Below, piece by piece: positions 5,447 through 42,622 of a DNA stretch of 64,000 nucleotides. Source of the DNA: Gammaproteobacteria bacterium. Lineage in GTDB: Bacteria; Pseudomonadota; Gammaproteobacteria; Tenderiales; Tenderiaceae. The DNA is taken from positions 287,644-351,643 of the forward strand of contig JACQEP010000010.1 of NCBI GenBank assembly GCA_016200485.1. The letters are read 5' to 3'. The first letter of the stretch is position 1; each line of letters starts with the position of its first letter. The notes under the pieces are model-generated. The model ran no database searches, was not told the origin of the DNA, and saw only the letters and a program-made list of their open reading frames with translations. The position numbers and the translations under genes were made by a program.

Positions 5447-5550
5447 AAAAACTCGCAGCTACTCAACTCACACTGCTGGGGATGATAACTTGGGATTCTA
5501 CGAGGGATAAGGTGAGGGCGCCAGCCCTATCGATGAATCAGGTTCCCTAG

Positions 5551-5693
5551 CAACCTGTTGAAAAAACGCGCTAAGGGGCACATCGCGGCGTTGAAAACGG
5601 ACTCAAAATGCTCATTTACGCCGTATAAACTCCGCTTTTCCGCCCGCTCCCGTCTCGCGCTACATCCCCTGATCACGTTTTTTCAACAGGCTG
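5551..5693. repeat. MITE-like element with 18-bp terminal inverted repeats CAGCYTGTTGAAAAAACG
   Basis: caacctgttgaaaaaacg at 5551-5568 and cgttttttcaacaggctg at 5676-5693. The same TIR type (cagcttgttgaaaaa) bounds the element at 40220-40359. The right TIR overlaps the last codons of ptsI. Confidence 0.5.
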
Positions 5694-8274: not shown

Positions 8275-9125
8275 GACACCTCCCGGTGGCGCAACAGAAC
8301 ATTCTCCCGCACAGCACCAAAATGCTCCGCCAGACGTTTGGCCAAATAAACAGAGCGATGCTGACCCCCGGTACAGCCAATGGCCACCGTCATATAAGTA
8401 CGGTTATCTGATTCGAAACTTGCCAACCAGCGCTCCAGAAACCCGGCAATATCTTCAAACATCTGACCCACCACCGGCTGCTGCGCCAGAAACTCCGCCA
8501 CCGGCTGATCAAGGCCGGTCAGACTGCGCAGCTGTGGCACCCAATGAGGATTGGGCAAGCAACGGACATCAAACACAAAATCGGCATCATTGGGAACACC
8601 GTGCTTAAATCCAAAGGAAAAGAAAGTGAGCGTCATGGCTTTGGCCTCGCTCAACATCCGTTCCCGCACCAGGTCGCGCAATTCATGAATATTGGTACGC
8701 GTCGTATCAAGACACCAGTCGGCATTGATCGCAACGTCTGACAGCAGACGACGCTCACTTTCAATCGCTTCTTTAAGCGATATCTCGCGCCGGGTCAGCG
8801 GGTGTTTGCGTCGCGTCTCGCTGAAACGTTTGATCAACGTGGCGTTATCGGCTTGCAGGAATATAATCTCGCACTCAAGCCCCATTTCCCTGATTTCAGA
8901 CACATACTCAGGGAAGTTTTTAAAATCTCCCGCCAGGTTGCGGGCGTCGATACCTACCGCTGCATGCTCATAATCGCGCCGTGGTGACGATGAAATCTGC
9001 TGCGCAAACGCCGTCAACAAACTCAACGGCAAATTATCGATACAATAAAACCCAAGATCTTCAAGCGCATGCAAGACCACGCTCTTGCCGGAACCAGACA
9101 ACCCGCTGACAATCACCAGCTTCAT
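8271..9125 (-). CDS. rapZ: RNase adaptor protein RapZ (YhbJ)
   Basis: 284 aa with the N-terminal Walker A GLSGSGKS and the characteristic C-terminal CTGGQHRS motif. Confidence 0.9.
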   Translation of the reverse strand: MKLVIVSGLSGSGKSVVLHALEDLGFYCIDNLPLSLLTAFAQQISSSPRRDYEHAAVGIDARNLAGDFKNFPEYVSEIREMGLECEIIFLQADNATLIKRFSETRRKHPLTRREISLKEAIESERRLLSDVAINADWCLDTTRTNIHELRDLVRERMLSEAKAMTLTFFSFGFKHGVPNDADFVFDVRCLPNPHWVPQLRSLTGLDQPVAEFLAQQPVVGQMFEDIAGFLERWLASFESDNRTYMTVAIGCTGGQHRSVYLAKRLAEHFGAVRENVLLRHREVS

Positions 9126-9655
9126 GCCGCCCCCTGCCGCATCGTTGCGTTCAATTTAGCCAACAAATCCTCTCCTGCCTCGTAACCTTGATCTGACAAT
9201 TGCTGAATACGCACCAGGGTTTCAACCAGCAAGGGCAAATTACGTCCCGCAGACACCGGCAGACTGCGCCAAGAAACTTCCTGGCCACATATTTTTTCTA
9301 CGCCGTATCGGCCCAAGATTCGATCATGCCCAACACAATCAACGTATTCCATCTTGAGAATCAAATCCAGCTGCACAGAAGCTTGCGTTACCGCTGCGCT
9401 ATAAATCCGAGCGAGATTGAGCACACCGATACCACGCACTTCGATAAACCCGGAAAAGCCTTTCTGGGCAGACCCCATCACCACACCTGATGACATCACA
9501 GAAAATTCAGGCGCATCATCTGCCACCAGCCGATGACCGCGATCGACTAATCCTAGGGCTAATTCGCTCTTACCAATTCCAGCCACGCCCTGGAGCAATA
9601 CCCCGCAACCCAAAACACTGACCAAAGTCCCCGGGGCCATGCTAGACAAGATCAA
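9122..9655 (-). CDS. hprK: HPr kinase/phosphorylase, short form (kinase domain only)
   Basis: 177 aa. P-loop GVAGIGKSELAL followed by GHRLVADD, consistent with the HprK C-terminal domain. There is no N-terminal domain: the start lies 12 bp after the rpoN stop. Confidence 0.8.
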   Translation of the reverse strand: MILSSMAPGTLVSVLGCGVLLQGVAGIGKSELALGLVDRGHRLVADDAPEFSVMSSGVVMGSAQKGFSGFIEVRGIGVLNLARIYSAAVTQASVQLDLILKMEYVDCVGHDRILGRYGVEKICGQEVSWRSLPVSAGRNLPLLVETLVRIQQLSDQGYEAGEDLLAKLNATMRQGAA

Positions 9656-9667
9656 CCTGCCTTTCGC

Positions 9668-11194
9668 TTACACAAAACGCTTGCGCTCACTTGAAGGTGG
9701 AATCGACATCGCTTCACGATATTTGGCCACCGTGCGCCGTGCAACATTAACCCCCTGATCCTCAAGAATTTCGGCAATCTTGCTATCACTCAGCGGTTTA
9801 CCCGGATTCTCGGCACCAATCAATTTCTTGATCACCGCCCGGATTGCCGTCGATGAACAGGAGTCTCCGGCGGTTGTCGTGACATAACTGGAGAAGAAAT
9901 ATTTCAGCTCAAACACCCCGCGCGGGGTATGCATATATTTTTTCGTTGTCACACGCGAGACCGTGGATTCGTGCAACTCCAACTCTTCGGAGATATCGTG
10001 TAACACCAGCGCCTTCATTGCCTCTTCACCGTGCTCCAGAAAACCTCGCTGGTGTTCAACAATCGCCGTTGCCACCCGCAACAAGGTCTCATTGCGACTC
10101 ATCAGGCTCTTGATAAACCAGCGCGCTTCCTGCAAATGATTGCGCAAATACGTGTTATCGGCGCTATTATCGGCACGCCGGATCAGCCCCGCGTAATGTG
10201 AATTTATTTTCAGTCGTGGCGCGGCATCCGAGTTCAGTTCAACCTTCCACTTGCCTTGAACCTTTTTCACAATTACATCAGGAATCACGTATTCGGGCGC
10301 CGACAATGCAACAGCCCCCCCTGGTCTTGGATTCATGGCGCGTATCACGCCAACTGCGCATTGAAGCTCTTCCAGTGACAGCTTCATGATTCGCAGCAGC
10401 CGGTTGGCGTCGCGATCCCCTAGTAAATCGAGATGTTCCTTGACGATTTGGATCGCGTTCACAACACCGGGTTGATCTTTATCAAGCGCCTGCAATTGCA
10501 ACAACAAACACTCGCGCAAATCTCGCGCGCCAACGCCTACAGGATCGAAATTCTGGATTCGATGCAATACCATCTCCACCTCATCCAGACCCACCTCATA
10601 ATCCAGATCAAGACCGTCACGAATCTCTTCCAGCGAGCCAATCAGATAGCCATCTTCATCAATCGAGTCGATAATGGCCTCGGCCACTGCGAGATCGGCA
10701 GCACTAAACGGCGTTAACCGCATCTGCCATACCAAATGATCGCGCAGGCTCTCCGCCCCTTCGCTCTGATTTTCAAACATCCGCTGATGATCATCGGCCG
10801 TCATGCCATGGGTAGTGGGCGTGAACGTGTCGTAAACATCCTCCCAATTGCTGTCCACCGGCAATTCATCCAGCATTTGAGCGTCTTGCAAATCAACGGC
10901 GCGATCGACATCGTTGGCCGTTTGCACCACATCCAGCGATTCTGTCACGGATTGTGGCACCGACTCGGTCACATCACCCGACTCATTCCAGTGCTCAGGC
11001 TCACCCGTCATATCGCCCGTCATATCACCCGAATCACCCGCATCGCCGAGTTCAAGCAGCGGATTGCTATCCAACGCCTCCTGAATTTCTGCTTGAAGAT
11101 CAATCGTCGATAGCTGCAACAGGCGTATCGCCTGCTGCAATTGTGGCGTCATGGTGAGTTGCTGACCAAGCCGAAGCTGGAGTGATTGTTTCAT
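9668..11194 (-). CDS. rpoN: RNA polymerase sigma-54 factor
   Basis: 508 aa. The N-terminal region I (LQLRLGQQLTMTPQLQQAIRLLQLS) and the C-terminal RpoN box (ARRTVAKYRE) are present. Confidence 0.95.
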   Translation of the reverse strand: MKQSLQLRLGQQLTMTPQLQQAIRLLQLSTIDLQAEIQEALDSNPLLELGDAGDSGDMTGDMTGEPEHWNESGDVTESVPQSVTESLDVVQTANDVDRAVDLQDAQMLDELPVDSNWEDVYDTFTPTTHGMTADDHQRMFENQSEGAESLRDHLVWQMRLTPFSAADLAVAEAIIDSIDEDGYLIGSLEEIRDGLDLDYEVGLDEVEMVLHRIQNFDPVGVGARDLRECLLLQLQALDKDQPGVVNAIQIVKEHLDLLGDRDANRLLRIMKLSLEELQCAVGVIRAMNPRPGGAVALSAPEYVIPDVIVKKVQGKWKVELNSDAAPRLKINSHYAGLIRRADNSADNTYLRNHLQEARWFIKSLMSRNETLLRVATAIVEHQRGFLEHGEEAMKALVLHDISEELELHESTVSRVTTKKYMHTPRGVFELKYFFSSYVTTTAGDSCSSTAIRAVIKKLIGAENPGKPLSDSKIAEILEDQGVNVARRTVAKYREAMSIPPSSERKRFV

Positions 11195-21918: not shown

Positions 21919-22686
<768 letters not shown>

Positions 22687-23074
22687 TTACAATAGCCGCC
22701 TTTCAATAACGATAAAAAAAATGGGTAGCAAGACCATAGAGAGATTAAGACCAAAGAGATGATGCCTGATGTCTTTAAGAATTATCCAAAATGGCTGAAA
22801 TCGACACACATTGGACCATTCGAAAATATCCTAGGGAATTGGGAAAAGTAGCTCTGACATCTGAATTTGTCTGAGCATTCTTTTCGCCGACGCAATCGGT
22901 TAACCAGCAATAGGACTTTCTTTTCGTCAATTACCCATATAAAATGAACGGAAAAATAATACCCAAAAGCACCACTTTTCACACACATTGCACGTAATTG
23001 TGCTGGATATCGACGGCCGATCTAGCGGTGGAGCTGATTGTGATGCGTGTCACCATAACAAACTGGTAGCAGAG

Positions 23075-25375
23075 ATGATTAATCGCGTTTCCTCGAAACT
23101 CCTCGTTCGTGAATTATTTGTGTTTATCACCGCAGTTGTACTTAGTGCATGCGGCGGCACAGACAACAGCACTGGAACCACCAGCAATGACGAGAGCAAC
23201 GTCCTGTCTGGTAGCAATGTTAATGTCAACAATGAGAATGTGGCGACAGTTTGGAAAACCGTTGACGCCAGTTGGCAACATAGCGCAGCAATCAAGAGTG
23301 ATGGCACCTTATGGACATGGGGAGATAACGGATTTGGTGAGCTCGGGGATGGTACAAACTCCAACCGAGAAGTACCGGTGCAGATATCAGGGGCGGAATG
23401 GAAAAGTGTTGCCACAGGTAATATTCATACAATTGCGGTTAAAGGCGATGGTACCCTTTGGGCATGGGGAAATAACTTTTATGGACAACTCGGCAATGGT
23501 GCCGTGAATTATGGTGCTGGAGAGAATGCTCCAGTGCATATTGGTAATGACAATGATTGGGTCAGCGTTTCGGCAGGGTACGATTATTCTGTTGCGATAA
23601 AAGAGAACGGTACTCTCTGGGCATGGGGCAATAACATGAGAGGCCAGCTTGGAGATGATGCGACTGTAGATCATTATGTTCCGGTACAGATTGGCTCAAG
23701 CAAGAACTGGATTAGTTTAGCAGCAGGAAATCTTCATGTTGTTGCGATTAAGGCGGATGGAACCCTTTGGGCATGGGGCGACAATACGTTTGGCCAACTC
23801 GGAGACGGTACTACCGAGCAACGAAATCTGCCTATACAGGTCGGTACCGATACCGATTGGGTTACTGTCAGCGCAGGCAATTATCACACATTAGCCATTA
23901 AGCGCGATGGTACGCTCTGGGGCTGGGGAAGTAATGGTGTTGGTCAGCTTGGTGATGGTGCATCCATACAGAGACTCAGCCCCGCGCAAATCGGTCTAGA
24001 CGCTAACTGGGCTGCTGTAACAGCGGGTGCTTTTCATACAATTGCCGTAAAGAGTGATGGCACCCTTTGGGGATGGGGAGATAACTGGCGAAATCAGCTA
24101 GGTGATGGCACAACTACGCAACGGCGCAGCCCAACTCGAATTGGTGTAGACACAGACTGGTCCAGAGCTGCTGCTGGCGGCGCTCACAATATTGCACTCA
24201 AGCGTAACGGTACACTCTGGACCTGGGGCCAAAATGACTATGGCCAACTGGGCAATGGGACGAGCGTGCGAACGCAGGATCGCAGGATACCGACACGTAT
24301 CAATGACGCTATGGTGTGGAAGAAAATCGCAGCTGGTGGAGATCATACCGTCGGCATCAAGGATGACGGTACACTGTGGGCCTGGGGTGATAATACAAAT
24401 GGACAGCTTGGTGATGGCACCACTGTCTATCGAAAAAATCCAATCCAGATTGGCGGCGCGACCGATTGGACTTTTGCGACAGCAGGAACTTCATACACTT
24501 TAGCCCTCAAAAATGACGGTACGCTGTGGGCGTGGGGATATAATGGATTCGGTCAGCTTGGAGACGGCACCACCATCGATCGACATCAGCCAATACGAAT
24601 CGGCACTGCCACTAATTGGACAAGTGTAGTGGCGGGGTATAGCCATTCAGTAGCACTCAAAACTGACGGTACCCTGTGGGCTTGGGGAGACAATGCCTCG
24701 AATCAGCTTGGCATTAATACACTTACGCGTAGCAATGTTCCAATCAAGATTAGCTCAAGTATAGGCTGGCGTAGTGTAGCGGTAGGAGCCTTTCATACGG
24801 TAGCGATTAAGGCGGACGGGACTCTCTGGGCATGGGGAGGAAATTGGTATGGACAGCTCGGTGATGGTACCAATACTAATCAAAACGTCCCCGTGCAAAT
24901 CGGGACTGATCAAGACTGGAGCACTGTTGCGGCCGGAAGCGGGGATACTTTTGCAATCAAAAGTGATACCTCCCTCTGGGGCTGGGGTTATAACCAAAGC
25001 GGTCAACTTGGTGATGGATCAGTAGAAAACCGCAGTTCTCCAGTTCAGGTTCAAGCGGGCGCTGAAACTGGTTGGATTAATATAGCCATTGGTGATGATC
25101 ATTGCGTAGCAATCAAAGCTGACGGAACGCTCTGGGCTTGGGGGTATAATTTATATGGCCAACGTGGAGATGATGTGAATCTAACGGTGGACAGTACCCC
25201 ATCACGAATTAGCGATGATACACCTTGGTCAGGTGTCGCAGCTGGCGCTCAACATTCGGTTGCACTCAAAGCTGATGGAACAGTCTTTACTTGGGGAAAC
25301 AACTATTATGGCCAGCTTGGCATTGGTGTATCTGGTATAGATCAAAACAGTTTAGTGCCAATTGCTATCCCCTGA
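23075..25375 (+). CDS. RCC1-repeat (7-bladed propeller x2) lipoprotein
   Basis: About 14 tandem units of roughly 50 aa with the DGTLWAWG-N-x-GQLGDGT signature. The likely start is Met at 23075 (MINRVSS...FITAVVLSACGG, lipobox LSAC). The listed ORF start at 22988 is an in-frame upstream extension. The region is visibly AT-richer than its flanks. Confidence 0.75.
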   Translation: MINRVSSKLLVRELFVFITAVVLSACGGTDNSTGTTSNDESNVLSGSNVNVNNENVATVWKTVDASWQHSAAIKSDGTLWTWGDNGFGELGDGTNSNREVPVQISGAEWKSVATGNIHTIAVKGDGTLWAWGNNFYGQLGNGAVNYGAGENAPVHIGNDNDWVSVSAGYDYSVAIKENGTLWAWGNNMRGQLGDDATVDHYVPVQIGSSKNWISLAAGNLHVVAIKADGTLWAWGDNTFGQLGDGTTEQRNLPIQVGTDTDWVTVSAGNYHTLAIKRDGTLWGWGSNGVGQLGDGASIQRLSPAQIGLDANWAAVTAGAFHTIAVKSDGTLWGWGDNWRNQLGDGTTTQRRSPTRIGVDTDWSRAAAGGAHNIALKRNGTLWTWGQNDYGQLGNGTSVRTQDRRIPTRINDAMVWKKIAAGGDHTVGIKDDGTLWAWGDNTNGQLGDGTTVYRKNPIQIGGATDWTFATAGTSYTLALKNDGTLWAWGYNGFGQLGDGTTIDRHQPIRIGTATNWTSVVAGYSHSVALKTDGTLWAWGDNASNQLGINTLTRSNVPIKISSSIGWRSVAVGAFHTVAIKADGTLWAWGGNWYGQLGDGTNTNQNVPVQIGTDQDWSTVAAGSGDTFAIKSDTSLWGWGYNQSGQLGDGSVENRSSPVQVQAGAETGWINIAIGDDHCVAIKADGTLWAWGYNLYGQRGDDVNLTVDSTPSRISDDTPWSGVAAGAQHSVALKADGTVFTWGNNYYGQLGIGVSGIDQNSLVPIAIP

Positions 25376-37756: not shown

Positions 37757-38218
37757 TTATATTGCAAATGCTTTAATTCTACGACTTGACCACTGATCAC
37801 ACGACCAACGGCCAACCCCAGCCGTTGCCAATAACAGTAAAACTACACCCCAAGCCTGATGATCGGTCGCGGCAGCAGGATCAAGATCCGGATAACTGAT
37901 TACGGCCATAATATTGAACATAAACAACAGCAATGCAGCAGGCCGCGCCAGCAAGCCAATTACCAGCAATACAGGCATCACCAATTCGATAAACGTTCCA
38001 AGATAGGCCGCATAGAGTGGCGAAAGTAATGGCACTGCATATTCGTTCTCAAAAAGATAAAGTGTGGTATCCCAACTGGTAATTTTCAGATAACCCGATT
38101 TGAAAAACGCCCACGCCACCCACACACGCAATAATAAAAATGCCAGCGGTGCCAGCCAGTCCAGAACTTTGGCGACATATTGCCACGCATGAAAAACAGG
38201 ATTAACAGCTACTTTCAT
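37757..38218 (-). CDS. DoxX family membrane protein (BufD/GigD-like, 4th gene of bufferin-type operon)
   Basis: 153 aa with 4 TM helices of DoxX type. It overlaps the preceding DUF2063 gene by 17 nt, consistent with an operon. Confidence 0.8.
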   Translation of the reverse strand: MKVAVNPVFHAWQYVAKVLDWLAPLAFLLLRVWVAWAFFKSGYLKITSWDTTLYLFENEYAVPLLSPLYAAYLGTFIELVMPVLLVIGLLARPAALLLFMFNIMAVISYPDLDPAAATDHQAWGVVLLLLATAGVGRWSCDQWSSRRIKAFAI

Positions 38219-38984
38219 CAGCTTTCCCCCTCTGTTTTAAACCAATAAAAATCCGGCGCGACAGACAAAAGGCCATGACAGTCGCCACATCCGTCTGATC
38301 CGCATAAGCAGTAAATACCTCACCCACTGGCACACCACCCGCCAAGGCCGTTACTAGCGCATATTCGGACACTCCTAACCGGACGATCTCGACATCAAAA
38401 TCAGTGCGATAGATCAGTAACCGATCACCGCCACTGCCAAGATCGATTTCCTCAAGTTCATCCCGGCGATGTTGTTGCCATATTTCCAGCACCGGGTACT
38501 GTGACTCAAGCCAGCGCAGGGCGGGATGCGGTATCAGTACACCATCATCGTTCATCTCAGCTGCATTCAAAACCAAGCTTGCTTCAGCATTAATGCCCGC
38601 ATGAAAAACTTCGTGATAGGCCCACTCCAGCCGCGCGATATCTGACAAATAGGGAAGTGCTTTGGCCGGAAGAAAATCTTTCAGAAACTCCGCCAGCGTC
38701 ACACCGTAGGCATGCACATTGGCGCTGGTGCGTGGATCATGTTGCCGATAAGCCTCTGCCAATGCCCCAAAGAAGGCCTCCCCCCCTAACCGTTTTATGA
38801 CGGGATACACAGCGGCCAGCGCCTCATGATGCCCGAGCACAAAATTATTGCGGTATACGGTCAACCGCTCGCGGCTGGAGAAGTGATCGCTTATCAGTTC
38901 ATCCGGCACCGCATTCAGCTGCCGCACCACAATCAGTTGACCCATTTCGAGTTGTAAATCACGCAGTGAGTGCATAACACCCAT
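38202..38984 (-). CDS. DUF2063 domain protein (BufC/GigC-like MNIO partner)
   Basis: It follows the DUF692 gene with overlap, as in gig/buf operons. The start is uncertain: the listed ORF extends to 39056, with internal Met candidates at 38984 and 38975. Confidence 0.7.
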   Translation of the reverse strand: MGVMHSLRDLQLEMGQLIVVRQLNAVPDELISDHFSSRERLTVYRNNFVLGHHEALAAVYPVIKRLGGEAFFGALAEAYRQHDPRTSANVHAYGVTLAEFLKDFLPAKALPYLSDIARLEWAYHEVFHAGINAEASLVLNAAEMNDDGVLIPHPALRWLESQYPVLEIWQQHRRDELEEIDLGSGGDRLLIYRTDFDVEIVRLGVSEYALVTALAGGVPVGEVFTAYADQTDVATVMAFCLSRRIFIGLKQRGKADESSC

Positions 38985-39837
38985 CCATAATGTGTTGTGC
39001 GCGCTGTGCTTCGGCCACCAACACCGGCAGCGGCGGCAAGACGGCGTCCCATTCAATTAACACCGGAATGCCCGCAAAACGGGCAACTGCGTGCTCATAC
39101 AAATCCCAGACCTCTTTCGATACTGGCTGGTCGTGGGTATCGATAATAAAGGTCGCCGCGTCGCGCAACTTCCTGGTGTGGCCGGCTAAATGTATCTCAC
39201 CGACAACGCCTGGCACGATATTGTTCAAATACGTTTTCGGATCGAACCGATGATTGATGGCGCTGACATACACATTATTAACGTCCAGCAATAACCCGCA
39301 ACCGCTACGGATCACCAGCTCGGAAAGAAATTCCCATTCACTCATGGTTGAATGTGCGTAGCGCACATAACTTGACAGATTTTCCATCAGAATTTGGCGG
39401 CCAAGAATCTCCTGGGCCTGCGTGACCCGGCCCGCGAGATGCATCAACGCCTCTTCGGTATACGGCAACGGCAGTAAATCATGGAAATGATGGCCTTGTA
39501 CTGATGACCATGACACATGCTCCGAGATCAAGCCGGGCTCAATATACTCGATCAAACGCTTGAGTTGTTTTAAATGAACCTCATCCAGCGGATCGGTCGA
39601 ACCTAGCGACAATCCTACTCCGTGAAGACTGACTGGATAATGTTCACGAATCTGCCCCAGTATCTGCCACGGCCGCCCACGCTCGCCAAAATAATTCTCA
39701 CTATGCACTTCCAGCCAGCCGACATCGGGATGTGCATGCAAAATGTCCTCATAATGCTCGGCCCGAAGACCGATCCCGGCGCACGCCGGGATCGGATGTG
39801 CAACCCGAGACCTGGGGTTTCGATGTTGCGTCACCAT
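38959..39837 (-). CDS. DUF692 multinuclear non-haem iron oxidase (MNIO; MbnB/BufB-like)
   Basis: 292 aa starting GIGLRAEHYEDIL...EVHSENYF, with LMENLSSY and EIHLAGH motifs typical of the DUF692/UPF0276 TIM barrel. Confidence 0.85.
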   Translation of the reverse strand: MVTQHRNPRSRVAHPIPACAGIGLRAEHYEDILHAHPDVGWLEVHSENYFGERGRPWQILGQIREHYPVSLHGVGLSLGSTDPLDEVHLKQLKRLIEYIEPGLISEHVSWSSVQGHHFHDLLPLPYTEEALMHLAGRVTQAQEILGRQILMENLSSYVRYAHSTMSEWEFLSELVIRSGCGLLLDVNNVYVSAINHRFDPKTYLNNIVPGVVGEIHLAGHTRKLRDAATFIIDTHDQPVSKEVWDLYEHAVARFAGIPVLIEWDAVLPPLPVLVAEAQRAQHIMDGCYALTA

Positions 39838-39842
39838 GACCG

Positions 39843-40109
39843 TTAAGCCTTCGGTTTGGCACTGCTATTAACGATCTTGTCGCATGTCCCCTTCGGTACG
39901 ACAAGAAATGCATTTGGGTCGGCATCTTTCTCGGCGTGACCGACACAGGAATTGGTCGAGGTCTTGCAATCGTTTTTGCCTGCTTTGACAATACCGTAGC
40001 ATTTCTCCATGTCATCCTTGGCTGCCAGGGCCGATGCAGACGCACCCATCAGGCTTAATGCGATGGCCGATGCCATAATTGCTTGAACTGAAGATTTACG
40101 ATTACCCAT
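39843..40109 (-). CDS. DUF2282-type signal-peptide/Cys-rich precursor (bufferin/GigA-like RiPP precursor)
   Basis: 88 aa with a Sec signal peptide and a core carrying 4 Cys (EKCYGIVKAGKNDC...NSCVGHAEKD...GTC). An AAGGAGA RBS precedes it. The gene is 5 bp upstream of the DUF692 gene. Confidence 0.75.
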   Translation of the reverse strand: MGNRKSSVQAIMASAIALSLMGASASALAAKDDMEKCYGIVKAGKNDCKTSTNSCVGHAEKDADPNAFLVVPKGTCDKIVNSSAKPKA

Positions 40110-40158
40110 AGTTGCTTCTCCTTATCTGTAATGATGAACTCAGTTTCGACACACCCGT

Positions 40159-40205
40159 GGTGCTCGCAGATAGAGACGCATGAAGTCTTATTTTGTTACA
40201 GGAGG
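40159..40205 (-). promoter_or_regulatory. putative ECF-sigma-type promoter of the buf-like operon (TGTAAC-N15-GCGTCT + conserved GGTGCTCGCAGATA box)
   Basis: The minus-strand reading ...CTGTAACAAAATAAGACTTCATGCGTCTCTATCTGCGAGCACC is almost identical to the motif at 41695-41741 upstream of the lactonase gene. Confidence 0.45.
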
Positions 40206-40219
40206 AAATGAAAAATTAG

Positions 40220-40359
40220 CAGCTTGTTGAAAAAGGCTCTTAGTCCCTTCTCCCTCCGGGAGAAGGCTAGGATGAGGGGATAAAATCAAGTAGTGATGAG
40301 GCATTTAACCCCTCACCCCAACCCTCTCCCTGGAGGAGAGGGAGTTTTTCAACAAGCTG
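40220..40359. repeat. 140-bp MITE (15-bp TIR CAGCTTGTTGAAAAA) carrying the GGGAGAAGG...CCTCACCCCAACCCTCTCCC core
   Basis: TIRs at 40220-40234 and 40345-40359. The internal ~105 bp is the reverse complement of the 26953-27055 element. Confidence 0.65.
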
Positions 40360-40461
40360 TTACTGATCTTTTTTTCGAATCATGGAGATAAAAAACAAAA
40401 GGACGGCATCGCTGCCGTCCTCCTTGCTTTCGCAACTTAATGAGGATCGTGTTTCAATCGA

Positions 40462-41550
40462 TTAGCGCACCGCCATACCTTGCGCAAACAACGGCAAACC
40501 GCCATCGACATTGCCCATACCGGTCAAACTGCCGTCGTGCTCGATCTTGAACATGTCTACACCACCGTTCGCCGGATCTACGGCGTAAACAAAACGGCCG
40601 TCCTTGGACACATCAATATCAAGCGGCCGATCACCGGCCCCGGCCAAACCATTCAGCAATGTCACGGCACCCGTCTGCGCATCAACGTGAAAGGCCGATA
40701 AGGAGTGCGTACCGGGATTGGTGGTAATGACATCGCCCCGCTGGTTCACAACGATCCAGCATGTTGCGATCTGGCCGTTAGCTGCTGATGCGGTAATGGT
40801 TTGCAAGCTGCCGTCGCGCAGCAGATCATAAGACGACACTGCATTACTGCCTGCCTCCACCGCCAGCAGATGCCCTACCCTGTCAAAAGCAACACCAAAG
40901 GGGACGTTGCCGGCGGATGCCGAGACCACAGGCGTGACATCCGGCAAGCCATGCTCACGCGTGCGATATACCAACAATCTGTTATTGGCTTTATCGGTGA
41001 CCACCAGCGACTTTCTCTGCGCATCGAATGCAACCTGACCAAAGGAGCCCGAGCCCAACGCACGCGTGGAATCCGGCAGTGGCACCAACTGCCCATGATC
41101 GCTCAACCGGAAACCTGTAATATTCGCGGGGACACCGTTGTTGAGCACATAAACGATATGTTCCGAAACGGTCACACTCACCGGAAAACTGCCGCCGGAA
41201 CCGGTTCTGTCACTCAACTCGATACCATCATTCTTCACGCGGAACACAGAAATATCGTTGCTTCCCGCGTTAACGGCCAGCAACCATTTACCCTCGTCAG
41301 CGAGCACCAGCGATCCTTGAGACGCCAACGGATCCAAGCCGCCTCCGGAACCTTTGCCACCCGTAGAGACCGCATCTGTTTTAATGAGAATTCCTTGCGC
41401 ATCACGGCTAAAAACAACGATCCGGTTATCTTCAGGCGCGTTAGTCATGGTATATGCCGCGCCTCCTGAATGAGCCTGCGCGCCGAACGATCCTAACAGG
41501 AATATCGCCGCTGTCGCGCTCCCTAGAAAATATCTTTTAATGTCCATGAT
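40462..41550 (-). CDS. secreted 7-bladed beta-propeller lactonase-family protein (YVTN/3-carboxymuconate-cyclase-like)
   Basis: A signal peptide (MDIKRYFLGSATAAIFLLGSFGAQA) is followed by repeated propeller-like blades (SVF..., VYAVDPANGG...). The start is set at the internal Met at 41550. Confidence 0.65.
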   Translation of the reverse strand: MMDIKRYFLGSATAAIFLLGSFGAQAHSGGAAYTMTNAPEDNRIVVFSRDAQGILIKTDAVSTGGKGSGGGLDPLASQGSLVLADEGKWLLAVNAGSNDISVFRVKNDGIELSDRTGSGGSFPVSVTVSEHIVYVLNNGVPANITGFRLSDHGQLVPLPDSTRALGSGSFGQVAFDAQRKSLVVTDKANNRLLVYRTREHGLPDVTPVVSASAGNVPFGVAFDRVGHLLAVEAGSNAVSSYDLLRDGSLQTITASAANGQIATCWIVVNQRGDVITTNPGTHSLSAFHVDAQTGAVTLLNGLAGAGDRPLDIDVSKDGRFVYAVDPANGGVDMFKIEHDGSLTGMGNVDGGLPLFAQGMAVR

Positions 41551-41694
41551 TTTTTTCCTCTTGGTTGTGAATGAAGAAAGATCAAATCGGCGGCCCAATG
41601 CCGCCTTCGCGGTACTGCTGTCCGCGTGCAGCCGCCTCGTAACGCCAAATAGCGTCAAAGTTGCAATGATGAAATAGATTTACCCGCGCCGGCC

Positions 41695-41741
41695 GGTGCT
41701 CGCAGATAAAGACGCGGGACTCCCCGCTTTGTTACAGATGG
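41695..41741 (-). promoter_or_regulatory. putative ECF-sigma-type promoter of the lactonase gene (second copy of shared motif)
   Basis: The minus-strand reading ...CTGTAACAAAGCGGGGAGTCCCGCGTCTTTATCTGCGAGCACC lies between the anti-sigma gene's 3' end and the lactonase start. Confidence 0.45.
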
Positions 41742-41750
41742 GAATGAAAA

Positions 41751-42014
41751 TTACTGATCTTTTTTCGAAGTGGACTTCGAGGAGGAGGATTGGCGCTGGC
41801 GCAGCAGCAAGGCCACCTGATTATCAATGGCGCCGCTGTCTGGAGATTTCTTCAAGCCCGCCAGCGTACTGACAGTGGTTCGCATCTGACGAATGAAGTT
41901 GCGGCAATGAACGCAGATAAACAGGTGCCAGCGGAATTGAATCCTCCCCCATAAGGAGAGGCGTTTTTCCAGGTAGTCACTGGCGTGGTCATGAATATCC
42001 CGGCACTTAAACAT
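41751..42014 (-). CDS. anti-sigma factor, zf-HC2 (putative zinc-finger) type
   Basis: H-x3-C-x2-C motif (WHLFICVHCRNF) near the N-terminus. Its start codon overlaps the sigma-factor stop (TAATG), indicating translational coupling. Confidence 0.65.
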   Translation of the reverse strand: MFKCRDIHDHASDYLEKRLSLWGRIQFRWHLFICVHCRNFIRQMRTTVSTLAGLKKSPDSGAIDNQVALLLRQRQSSSSKSTSKKDQ

Positions 42015-42622
42015 TAGCCAGCCTCGCCGCGCTGAAATTGATCGATGGCCTGCCACAGTCGCAAGCGGGCGCGATGCAACAACACTCGACTATTAGACTC
42101 GGAAAGCTCCAGAATATTACAAATTTCATCCATCTCCAGCCCCTCAACATCGCGCAGCGTCAACACCGTCCGTTGCACTTCCGGCAACGCAACAAGCGTA
42201 CAATCGATCACTGCCCGTAATTGTTCACTGGCCAACATCAGTTCCGGGGTATCTTGATGCCAGTGGCCGGGCGGTTCCACCCAGTGACCATCCGGCTGAA
42301 ACATCTGGCCAGCGGCTGCGGCGACCAACTCAATATCTGCGGCATCCCCGACAGCGACCGAACGCCGCTCGCGGCGCAGACGCGTTTTGGCCAGATTGCC
42401 GACAATTTGCAGAATCCAGGTCTTAAGACTGGCACGCCGTTCAAACTGAGGCAGGGCCTGGATCACGGCCAGCCAGGCATCCTGCACGATTTCTTCGGCA
42501 AACTCGCTACCGATAATGGCGCGCGCCACATGCTGCATCAGTCCATGATACTCGCCAACGACGTGCCGGAATGCCTCCTCGTCGCCCGCCAGTAATCTGG
42601 TAATTAATTCGCCGTCATCCAT
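42014..42622 (-). CDS. ECF (group IV) sigma-70 family RNA polymerase sigma factor
   Basis: 202 aa with sigma-2 (…FRHVVGEYHGLMQHVAR…) and sigma-4 (LPEVQRTVLTLRDVEGLEMDEICNILELSESNSRVLLHRAR) regions. Confidence 0.85.
   Translation of the reverse strand: MDDGELITRLLAGDEEAFRHVVGEYHGLMQHVARAIIGSEFAEEIVQDAWLAVIQALPQFERRASLKTWILQIVGNLAKTRLRRERRSVAVGDAADIELVAAAAGQMFQPDGHWVEPPGHWHQDTPELMLASEQLRAVIDCTLVALPEVQRTVLTLRDVEGLEMDEICNILELSESNSRVLLHRARLRLWQAIDQFQRGEAG

Follow-up and report, generated by a model that had tools for sequence, protein, structure and literature searches.

Can a bufferin-1 gene cluster be controlled by something other than the membrane anti-sigma factor NrsF, to our knowledge the only bufferin-1 regulator described to date? 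The question is raised by a stretch of DNA from a metagenome-assembled genome (MAG) of a Tenderiaceae gammaproteobacterium (64,000 nt of contig JACQEP010000010.1, assembly GCA_016200485.1; hereafter the window), in which a bufferin-1 cluster (bufABCD) lies downstream of two genes coding for an extracytoplasmic function (ECF) sigma factor and a small anti-sigma factor. We consider it probable (at roughly 0.8) that the cluster and the upstream pair form one stress regulon. In this regulon the bufferin-1 cluster would be under MseR-type rather than NrsF-type control, an arrangement that appears to be a recombination of two known modules.

The interval 37757–42622 of the window is made up of seven co-oriented genes, all with intact open reading frames (ORFs), which are given here in the direction of transcription:

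42014–42622, minus strand: ECF sigma factor, 202 amino acids (aa); Sigma70_r2 56 bits, Sigma70_r4_2 51 bits, TIGR02937
41751–42014, minus strand: predicted zinc-binding anti-sigma factor (ZAS), 87 aa; zf-HC2 31 bits, NCBIfam NF052368 antisigmaE 60.5 bits (cut-off 50)
40462–41547, minus strand: secreted lactonase-fold beta-propeller, 361 aa; PF10282 Lactonase family
39843–40109, minus strand: bufA, bufferin-1 precursor, 88 aa; PF10048 80.4 bits (cut-off 22.4), E = 9.6e-23
38959–39837, minus strand: bufB, MNIO (DUF692) maturase, 292 aa; PF05114 365.9 bits, NF050167 MNIO_BufB 393.8 bits (cut-off 310)
38202–38975, minus strand: bufC, DUF2063 partner, 257 aa; PF09836 63.1 bits (cut-off 27.2)
37757–38218, minus strand: bufD, DoxX membrane protein, 153 aa; PF07681 59.3 bits (cut-off 23.6), hydrophobic segments

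A preliminary description of this DNA, made from the letters alone, had proposed a DUF2282/DUF692/DUF2063/DoxX cluster, and in the Pfam search all four buf products scored above the curated cut-offs. Its gene list and coordinates were correct apart from two details. The gene order A-B-C-D held, as did the overlaps bufB/bufC and bufC/bufD (17 nt each), but bufA and bufB, also given as overlapping, are separated by a gap of 5 nt. The regulatory pair, placed "1.5 kb away", is indeed found upstream, but the 1,641 nt in between are not empty and hold the propeller gene, a terminator, a promoter duplicate and a miniature inverted-repeat transposable element (MITE). The start of bufC was set at 38975 because the same 17-nt overlap with bufB is found in L023, L025, L107, L108 and L109 (labels of this form denote the loci of relatives that were compared with the window, metagenomic loci included). 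The stop/start overlap TAATG, from which a translational coupling of the zf-HC2 anti-sigma gene to the sigma gene had been proposed, was seen in the sequence, and coupling of the same type is present in L022, L023 and L025.

The precursor BufA has the Sec signal and the four-Cys core previously noted, with EKCYG, NDC, NSCVGH and GTC all present as quoted, and bufA is preceded by the ribosome-binding site (RBS) AAGGAG. From hydropathy and motif reading, the signal peptide shows the n-region MGNRK, a hydrophobic stretch (19-residue Kyte-Doolittle mean 1.75) and ASA/ALA cleavage motifs before AKDD. The cysteines stand at positions 37, 48, 55 and 76, a spacing of 11/7/21 that is the same in 113 of the 120 closest homologs, and the invariant columns are E35, K36, C37, G39, A43, N46, D47, C48, C55, P72, K73, G74 and C76. 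When compared with the bufferin family, this spacing fits bufferin-1 and the EKC.G, NDC, C.G and PKG.C columns are invariant. In BufA1 of Caulobacter vibrioides the core cysteines are at 12, 23, 31 and 52 (spacing 11/8/21), CysII and CysIII are converted to 5-thiooxazoles, and CysI and CysIV form a disulfide (PMC11626156). For the core of the window's BufA, counted from Ala30, the predicted monoisotopic mass is 6196.02 Da before modification and 6185.94 Da in the mature form. In an AlphaFold2 model of low confidence (predicted local distance difference test score 62), Cys37 belongs to the first beta-strand, Cys76 to a short helix, and the Cys48–Cys55 loop is disordered, which agrees with the published description of BufA1 (PMC11626156). 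PDB sequence searches returned nothing useful for BufA and no match for BufC.

In BufB, seven residues are identical to iron ligands of MbnB as listed in PMC9060507 (H107=H90, E152=E133, D185=D163, N188=N166, H216=H192, D233=D208 and H235=H210); the comparison spans these seven, and the equivalents of MbnB H54 and E239 fall outside the alignment. In BufC, the PF09836 match falls on the N-terminal domain; an RRE-like domain at the C-terminus is a further mark of the DUF2063 partners in bufferin-1 clusters. Alternative MNIO models stayed below their cut-offs on BufB, with 247 bits for HvfB (360) and 62.8 bits for MbnB TIGR04159 (325). Judged by these features, the cluster is to be classed as a regular bufferin-1 (BufA1/DUF2282) gene cluster. 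Two other peptide types were tried and rejected: the EGKCG-repeat captophorins (oxazolin, gonophorin, fontiphorin; Hvf), as BufA contains no GKCG motif and the HvfB score is below the cut-off, and methanobactin, given the TIGR04159 score and a partner protein that is DUF2063 rather than MbnC.

A role like that of methanobactin, in which the peptide would be secreted as a copper-acquiring chalkophore and not kept as a periplasmic buffer, also seems highly improbable. The MNIO enzyme is related to MbnB, and in L022 a TonB-dependent receptor gene (8590–10641) directly follows bufD. This receptor gene is, however, not conserved in other loci (L023, L025 and L107–L109), the MbnB model scores far below its cut-off, the window's cluster has no MbnC, MATE exporter or MbnT-type receptor gene, and the Sec signal peptide together with a predicted folded product of ~59 residues is as in periplasmic Buf1.

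No transmembrane segment was found in the anti-sigma factor, whose highest 19-residue Kyte-Doolittle mean is 0.7, and it is therefore no envelope-stress sensor. The suggestion that the pair responds to metal or envelope stress has thus to be given up for the envelope, and as to metals, the characterised relatives answer to oxidants and not demonstrably to metals (PMC2893595, PMC7907618). Residues C4, H30, C34 and C37 are invariant in five aligned orthologs. They occupy the same positions as in Neisseria meningitidis MseR (NMB2145), in which Cys4, Cys34 and Cys37 are required for anti-sigma activity and the register equals C11/H37/C41/C44 of RsrA (PMC2893595), and on this basis the window's protein is assigned to the MseR type, being by its residues a cytoplasmic Zn/thiol anti-sigma factor of the MseR/HrsE/RsrA kind. 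The likeness to MseR and HrsE rests on ligand positions, protein size, promoter layout and regulon content, with the Neisseria and Haemophilus proteins compared by description only. A weak profile match to the mycobacterial ZAS RslA (3hug_B, E = 0.08) was obtained, and the 18 proteins to which a word-indexed protein search with the anti-sigma factor was confined are all close relatives, none of them a named protein of Neisseria or Haemophilus. The sigmaF/NrsF (ECF16) regulator type was considered and rejected, as the anti-sigma factor matches zf-HC2 only and has no hydrophobic segment. In the sigma factor itself, a His/Trp-rich linker is conserved between regions 2 and 4 (residues ~105–121, window 42259–42310; F-Q/K-x-DGHW...GHW..D(T/S)PE), of which F108, D111, G112, H113, W114 and W121 are invariant in five orthologs.

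That this pair controls the buf operon, as had been proposed, is supported by a conserved motif upstream of bufA and by the adjacency of both modules in relatives. A motif scan of the window gave, besides a third match described below, the following two occurrences:

41710–41736, minus strand: TGTAAC-N16-CGTCT before the propeller gene
40174–40200, minus strand: TGTAAC-N16-CGTCT before bufA, 64 nt from the ATG

Three matches in the 64 kb compare with 0.03 expected. The motif upstream of bufA is conserved in six loci in which the flanks have diverged, at a distance from bufA of 62–102 nt in L001, L002, L022, L023/24 and L025/26. Its retention while the surrounding sequence diverged marks it as the phylogenetic footprint of an ECF-type promoter. 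More narrowly, the layout GTAACAWWN-N12-CGTCT is found before bufA in the six loci and before the propeller gene. A sigma-70 promoter scan gave fewer matches than in shuffled controls. The 400 nt before the sigma gene were also scanned for TGTAAC...CGTC in the window, L002, L022, L023 and L025, and none of these five loci gave a match.

The bufferin promoter mapped in Caulobacter is GTAACC-N16-CGAA (PMC3511200), the RpoE7 promoter of Sinorhizobium is TGTAACA-N15-CGAAT (PMC6180224), and the Neisseria sigmaE promoter has the layout GTMAGBWTT, 12–13 nt, CGTCTAAH (PMC2893595). As far as can be read from the motif, the −35 element and spacing in the window equal those of the Caulobacter and Sinorhizobium bufferin promoters, and the −10 element equals that of Neisseria sigmaE.

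The third exact match (22637–22663, plus strand) lies ~325 nt upstream of the ORF 22988–25375, which codes for a 795-aa RCC1-repeat protein (PF00415, 14 repeats), and may be a further regulon member or a chance occurrence.

The same modules stand together in relatives. In L001 and L002 (BufB 83% identical) the order sigma, anti-sigma, propeller, bufABCD is as in the window; in L022, L023 and L025 (BufA 65–75% identical) the sigma, zf-HC2 and bufABCD genes are directly adjacent and there is no propeller gene. The window's sigma factor is 62–79% identical to the products of the sigma genes that precede bufA in L002, L022, L023 and L025. No sigma gene was found near the clusters of L107–L109 (BufA1 54–64% identical). 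One of these, L107 (2984–7343), contains tandem MNIO/DUF2063 pairs, with an 84-aa ORF, an MNIO and a DUF2063 gene before a complete bufA1-B-C-DoxX set and then an EF-hand gene.

Between the anti-sigma gene and bufA, the window holds the gene for the propeller, a 7-bladed lactonase-fold protein with a signal peptide, as well as several further features:

41662–41769, minus strand: duplicated segment, copy 1, comprising the last ~19 nt of the anti-sigma ORF, the stop codon and the promoter region
40397–40424, minus strand: terminator-like hairpin after the propeller gene, a 12-pair stem followed by the T-run GTTTTTTATC
40127–40379, minus strand: duplicated segment, copy 2, comprising a vestigial anti-sigma 3′ end (GAAAAAAAGATCAGTAA) and the promoter region, interrupted by the MITE
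40219–40360, no strand: MITE-like palindrome of 142 bp with the terminal inverted repeat (A)CAGCTTGTTGAAAAA and a TA target-site duplication

A segment of ~110 nt is thus present twice, once after the anti-sigma gene, its natural place, and once between the propeller terminator and bufA. After removal of the MITE, the two copies are 76% identical over 113 columns and ~90% over the first 45 nt. From the gene order of L022, L023 and L025, we regard it as likely that the propeller module was added later, with a promoter copy, to an ancestral six-gene unit of sigma, zf-HC2 and bufABCD. A GC-rich hairpin followed by a T-rich stretch (41589–41605, minus strand) in the ~155-nt 5′ untranslated region (UTR) of the propeller gene may be an attenuator or a chance structure.

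The MITE is inserted at a TA within the vestigial TAA stop codon of copy 2, folds with −83.9 kcal/mol (z = −9.6), and its terminal repeats occur five times in the window against 0.2 expected. A second MITE-like copy (5551–5693) has the ~20-nt terminal inverted repeats TAGCAGCYTGTTGAAAAA and the length in common with it and a different internal sequence. Rfam yielded only sub-threshold matches (two microRNA-precursor models in the MITE hairpin and one small RNA model in bufB). An inserted element with a hairpin of about −84 kcal/mol, located between the propeller terminator and the bufA promoter, could be taken as a sign that the locus is decaying and that insertion and rearrangement have uncoupled bufABCD from its regulator, and the msrPQ genes of L001, described below, are apparently frameshifted. 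We hold such decay to be very improbable, since all seven ORFs are intact with full-length family matches and the MITE ends ~19 nt before the −35 element of bufA, leaving the motif, the RBS and the 5′ UTR untouched.

The intervening propeller gene also bears on whether the sigma pair might control only the propeller or distant targets, with bufABCD regulated independently and its adjacency coincidental. The propeller stands between the regulator and bufA, and the sigma homologs recovered from metagenomes mostly lack buf genes. These homologs were obtained by a scan with the sigma alignment, which replaced the anti-sigma alignment (0 confirmed loci) and gave 80 loci with sigma homologs of 40–56% identity; a ZAS gene follows the sigma homolog in nearly all of them, and a propeller homolog adjoins the sigma/ZAS homologs in 7 of the 80. 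A further argument for coincidence comes from Cupriavidus metallidurans, in which control of gig by RpoQ was not shown (PMC13492112). On the other hand, in six loci a separate copy of the motif stands before bufA at a conserved distance, in the propeller-free L022, L023 and L025 the anti-sigma gene is followed immediately by bufA, and the segment upstream of bufA in the window retains the 3′ end of the anti-sigma gene. Independent regulation is considered very unlikely, and a single regulon comprising the sigma pair and bufABCD is preferred.

Several points nevertheless weigh against a common stress regulon. Most of the sigma homologs of 40–56% identity stand in unrelated contexts, and the family is hence not dedicated to buf clusters; in a Pfam census downstream of the 80 homologs no partner dominated, the commonest being FemAB-like genes (9 of the 120 ORFs scanned) and porins. 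The case of RpoQ and gig (PMC13492112) implies that adjacency is no guarantee of control. Meningococcal sigmaE was not activated by H2O2, diamide or singlet oxygen (PMC2893595). In addition, the organism is an uncultured gammaproteobacterium represented by a MAG.

Among characterised systems, buf1 of C. vibrioides (CCNA_03363–03366) is like the window's cluster in having a DUF2282 precursor with Sec signal and four cysteines, an MNIO, a DUF2063 and a DoxX gene in the same order (PMC11626156). An ECF sigma/anti-sigma pair also lies beside that operon, and the −35 element and spacing are the same (PMC11626156, PMC3511200). The two differ in the anti-sigma factor (a soluble 87-aa zf-HC2 protein in the window, a six-transmembrane DUF1109 NrsF in C. 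vibrioides), in the −10 element (CGTCT rather than CGAA) and in the CysII–CysIII spacing (7 rather than 8). In contrast to C. vibrioides, the window also has the extra propeller gene with a duplicated promoter, and no motif was found before its sigma gene. A survey of domains near MNIO genes that lists those at ≥5% gives Sigma70 with 23% and NrsF with 12% and does not list zf-HC2 (PMC12452194, Table S1), which implies that zf-HC2 occurs near fewer than 5% of MNIO genes.

In its regulator, the window resembles sigmaE–MseR of Neisseria (NMB2140–NMB2145; NGO1943–1948) and RpoE2–HrsE of Haemophilus influenzae, in which a small cytoplasmic ZAS with Cys4/His30/Cys34/Cys37 is translationally linked to an ECF sigma factor. 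The promoter of Neisseria is also alike, with the −10 element CGTCT(AA) and a −35 element starting with GTAA, ~12 nt apart. The targets in both genera are a DoxX/MNIO/DUF2063 peptide cluster and periplasmic methionine sulfoxide reductases (Msr) (PMC2893595, PMC7907618, PMC13097082). The meningococcal genes NMB2140–2145 were described as a DoxX-like gene, three hypothetical genes, rpoE and mseR, with msrAB in the regulon (PMC2893595). Because the MNIO cluster of N. gonorrhoeae makes the EGKCG-type thiooxazole peptide gonophorin (PMC13097082), we infer that the three hypothetical genes code for the MNIO, the DUF2063 protein and the precursor. The Neisseria and Haemophilus precursors are of the EGKCG-repeat type (gonophorin, oxazolin), whereas that of the window is DUF2282. 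Their sigma and anti-sigma genes lie inside the autoregulated target operon, whereas the window's pair stands upstream and has no recognisable autoregulatory motif. In the ECF classification, the Neisseria and Haemophilus group is given as ECF13 (PMC7907618). Finally, the Msr partner in the window's lineage is MsrPQ, as seen in L001, and is absent from the window itself.

C. metallidurans has a homologous four-gene cluster (gigPABT) beside the ECF pair RpoQ/RsqA (ECF16), which is copper- and gold-induced; there, unlike in the window, the anti-sigma factor RsqA is membrane-bound and rpoQ is divergent from gig, and a dependence of gig expression on RpoQ could not be shown (PMC13492112). In Sinorhizobium meliloti, RpoE7–EcfR7 likewise controls a DUF692/DUF2063 cluster (SMb20527–20530), from a promoter that has the −35 element and spacing of the window but another −10 element (PMC6180224). 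SigR–RsrA of Streptomyces coelicolor is similar in its soluble ZAS, with the register C11/H37/C41/C44 and a thiol-oxidation switch (PMC2893595), but its regulon is unrelated (thioredoxin system) and the phylum is different.

The likeness to the Neisseria and Haemophilus regulators raises the alternative that the bufferin-1 system has its trigger and role in periplasmic defence against oxidants (HOCl, H2O2), and not copper, with a thiol-rich peptide paired with methionine-sulfoxide repair. Characterised regulators of the same type control MsrAB or MtsZ, and H. influenzae RpoE2/HrsE (HrsE being a ZAS of 67 aa), which responds to HOCl, H2O2 and paraquat, has msrAB, mtsZ and a DoxX cluster as its targets (PMC7907618). 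In L001, msrP and msrQ genes with their own promoter copy lie between the anti-sigma and propeller genes, and in L029 and L036 msrPQ follows an EGKCG-type precursor that is divergent from a sigma/ZAS homolog. Conversely, copper protection and copper binding are the demonstrated functions of Buf1, which is exported via its Sec signal peptide (PMC11626156), and no msr gene is linked to the locus, msrPQ having been searched for in the 64-kb window and found absent. The two roles are, moreover, compatible because Cu(I) and oxidants both attack Zn-thiolate sites. We consider an oxidant role in place of copper possible, at odds well below even, and keep the copper-binding bufferin-1 regulon as the preferred reading.

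In L001 (771–2225), the coding sequences of the msrP-like (Oxidored_molyb) and msrQ-like (Ferric_reduct) genes run through several frames, and the genes are either pseudogenes or the product of a MAG assembly error. Promoter copies are found there before msrPQ (TGAAAC-N16-CGTCT) and before the propeller gene (TGTAAC-N16-CGACT), which together with that of bufABCD makes three tandem copies. Across the 80 metagenomic loci, msrPQ is found near sigma homologs in two and EGKCG-type precursors adjoin sigma homologs in seven; the motif is located directly upstream of such a precursor, next to sigma homologs, in L035 and L029. In L029 and L036, the precursor and msrP/msrQ extend from ~4960 to 2460 on the minus strand, with no MNIO gene detected, and the precursor of L029 is preceded by TTGTAACAATCC...CGTCT. 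Both loci also have an exact match to the motif (5484–5510, plus strand) within the 3′ end of the sigma gene.

Only tentatively, and with low confidence, do we propose that the propeller is an unrecognised accessory of thiooxazole-peptide stress regulons and that such islands grow by copying the ECF promoter before each new module. Behind this proposal stand the propeller's own duplicate of the bufA promoter, the copies before msrPQ, propeller and bufABCD in L001, and the recurrence of propeller homologs beside sigma/ZAS homologs (the 7 of 80 loci mentioned above), beside a sigmaF/NrsF-type pair (L113), with cytochrome-b and molybdopterin oxidoreductase genes (L112) and with a cupredoxin-like gene (L110). 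The duplicated-promoter architecture, the recurrent association of the propeller with these regulons and the MITE insertion appear to be unreported in the literature searched; we regard the promoter duplication and the propeller association as modest leads and the MITE as incidental.

The propeller has roughly 3,000 homologs. In L113 (3553–6104), a 67%-identical propeller homolog divergently adjoins a sigma/NrsF (PF06532) pair, and the intergenic TGTAAC-N16-CGGAAT points toward the propeller gene. In L112 (5001–7744), the propeller homolog is followed by the cytochrome-b gene (Ni_hydr_CYTB) and the molybdopterin oxidoreductase gene, and in L110 (5001–7317) and L111 by a cupredoxin-like gene and a MucB_RseB-like gene. 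A further propeller context, L114, was uninformative.

A mechanism can be proposed for the bufferin-1 regulon if the chemistry, the copper binding, the inducing signal and the recognition of the motif by this sigma factor are taken from its characterised homologs. In unstressed cells, the zinc-binding anti-sigma factor (Cys4, His30, Cys34 and Cys37) would keep the sigma factor inactive, until thiol oxidation or the attack of a thiophilic metal on the Zn-thiolate site released it. The free sigma factor would then direct RNA polymerase to the two TGTAAC-N16-CGTCT promoters, one of which would yield the secreted lactonase-fold propeller and the other bufABCD. In C. vibrioides, BufB and BufC are both required to make the thiooxazoles and between them suffice for it, and DoxX is dispensable (PMC11626156). 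By analogy, BufB, a multi-iron oxidase, would together with BufC convert Cys48 and Cys55 of BufA to 5-thiooxazoles in the cytoplasm, after which BufA would be exported by Sec and its signal peptide removed. With a Cys37–Cys76 disulfide formed, the product of ~59 residues may chelate copper in the periplasm.

Bufferins and captophorins are copper-binding ribosomal peptides that form a very large class, defined only recently. The window and its relatives would offer a clean natural example of a bufferin-1 cluster wired, with a conserved promoter, to a soluble MseR-type Zn/Cys anti-sigma factor, and if this is true, the regulon would be triggered by a cytoplasmic Zn-thiolate switch, unlike with the membrane sensor NrsF. 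The −35 element TGTAAC and its spacing are common to both regulator classes. The locus thereby ties the older literature on Neisseria and Haemophilus sigmaE/RpoE2, which dealt with oxidants and Msr, to the bufferin literature, which deals with copper, and suggests that the same modules have repeatedly come together into one stress regulon. For a specialist the locus is unsurprising and the practical gain is modest, consisting of the propeller as a candidate accessory gene, which, if the tentative proposal made above is true, would act in periplasmic copper or oxidant defence alongside the bufferin.

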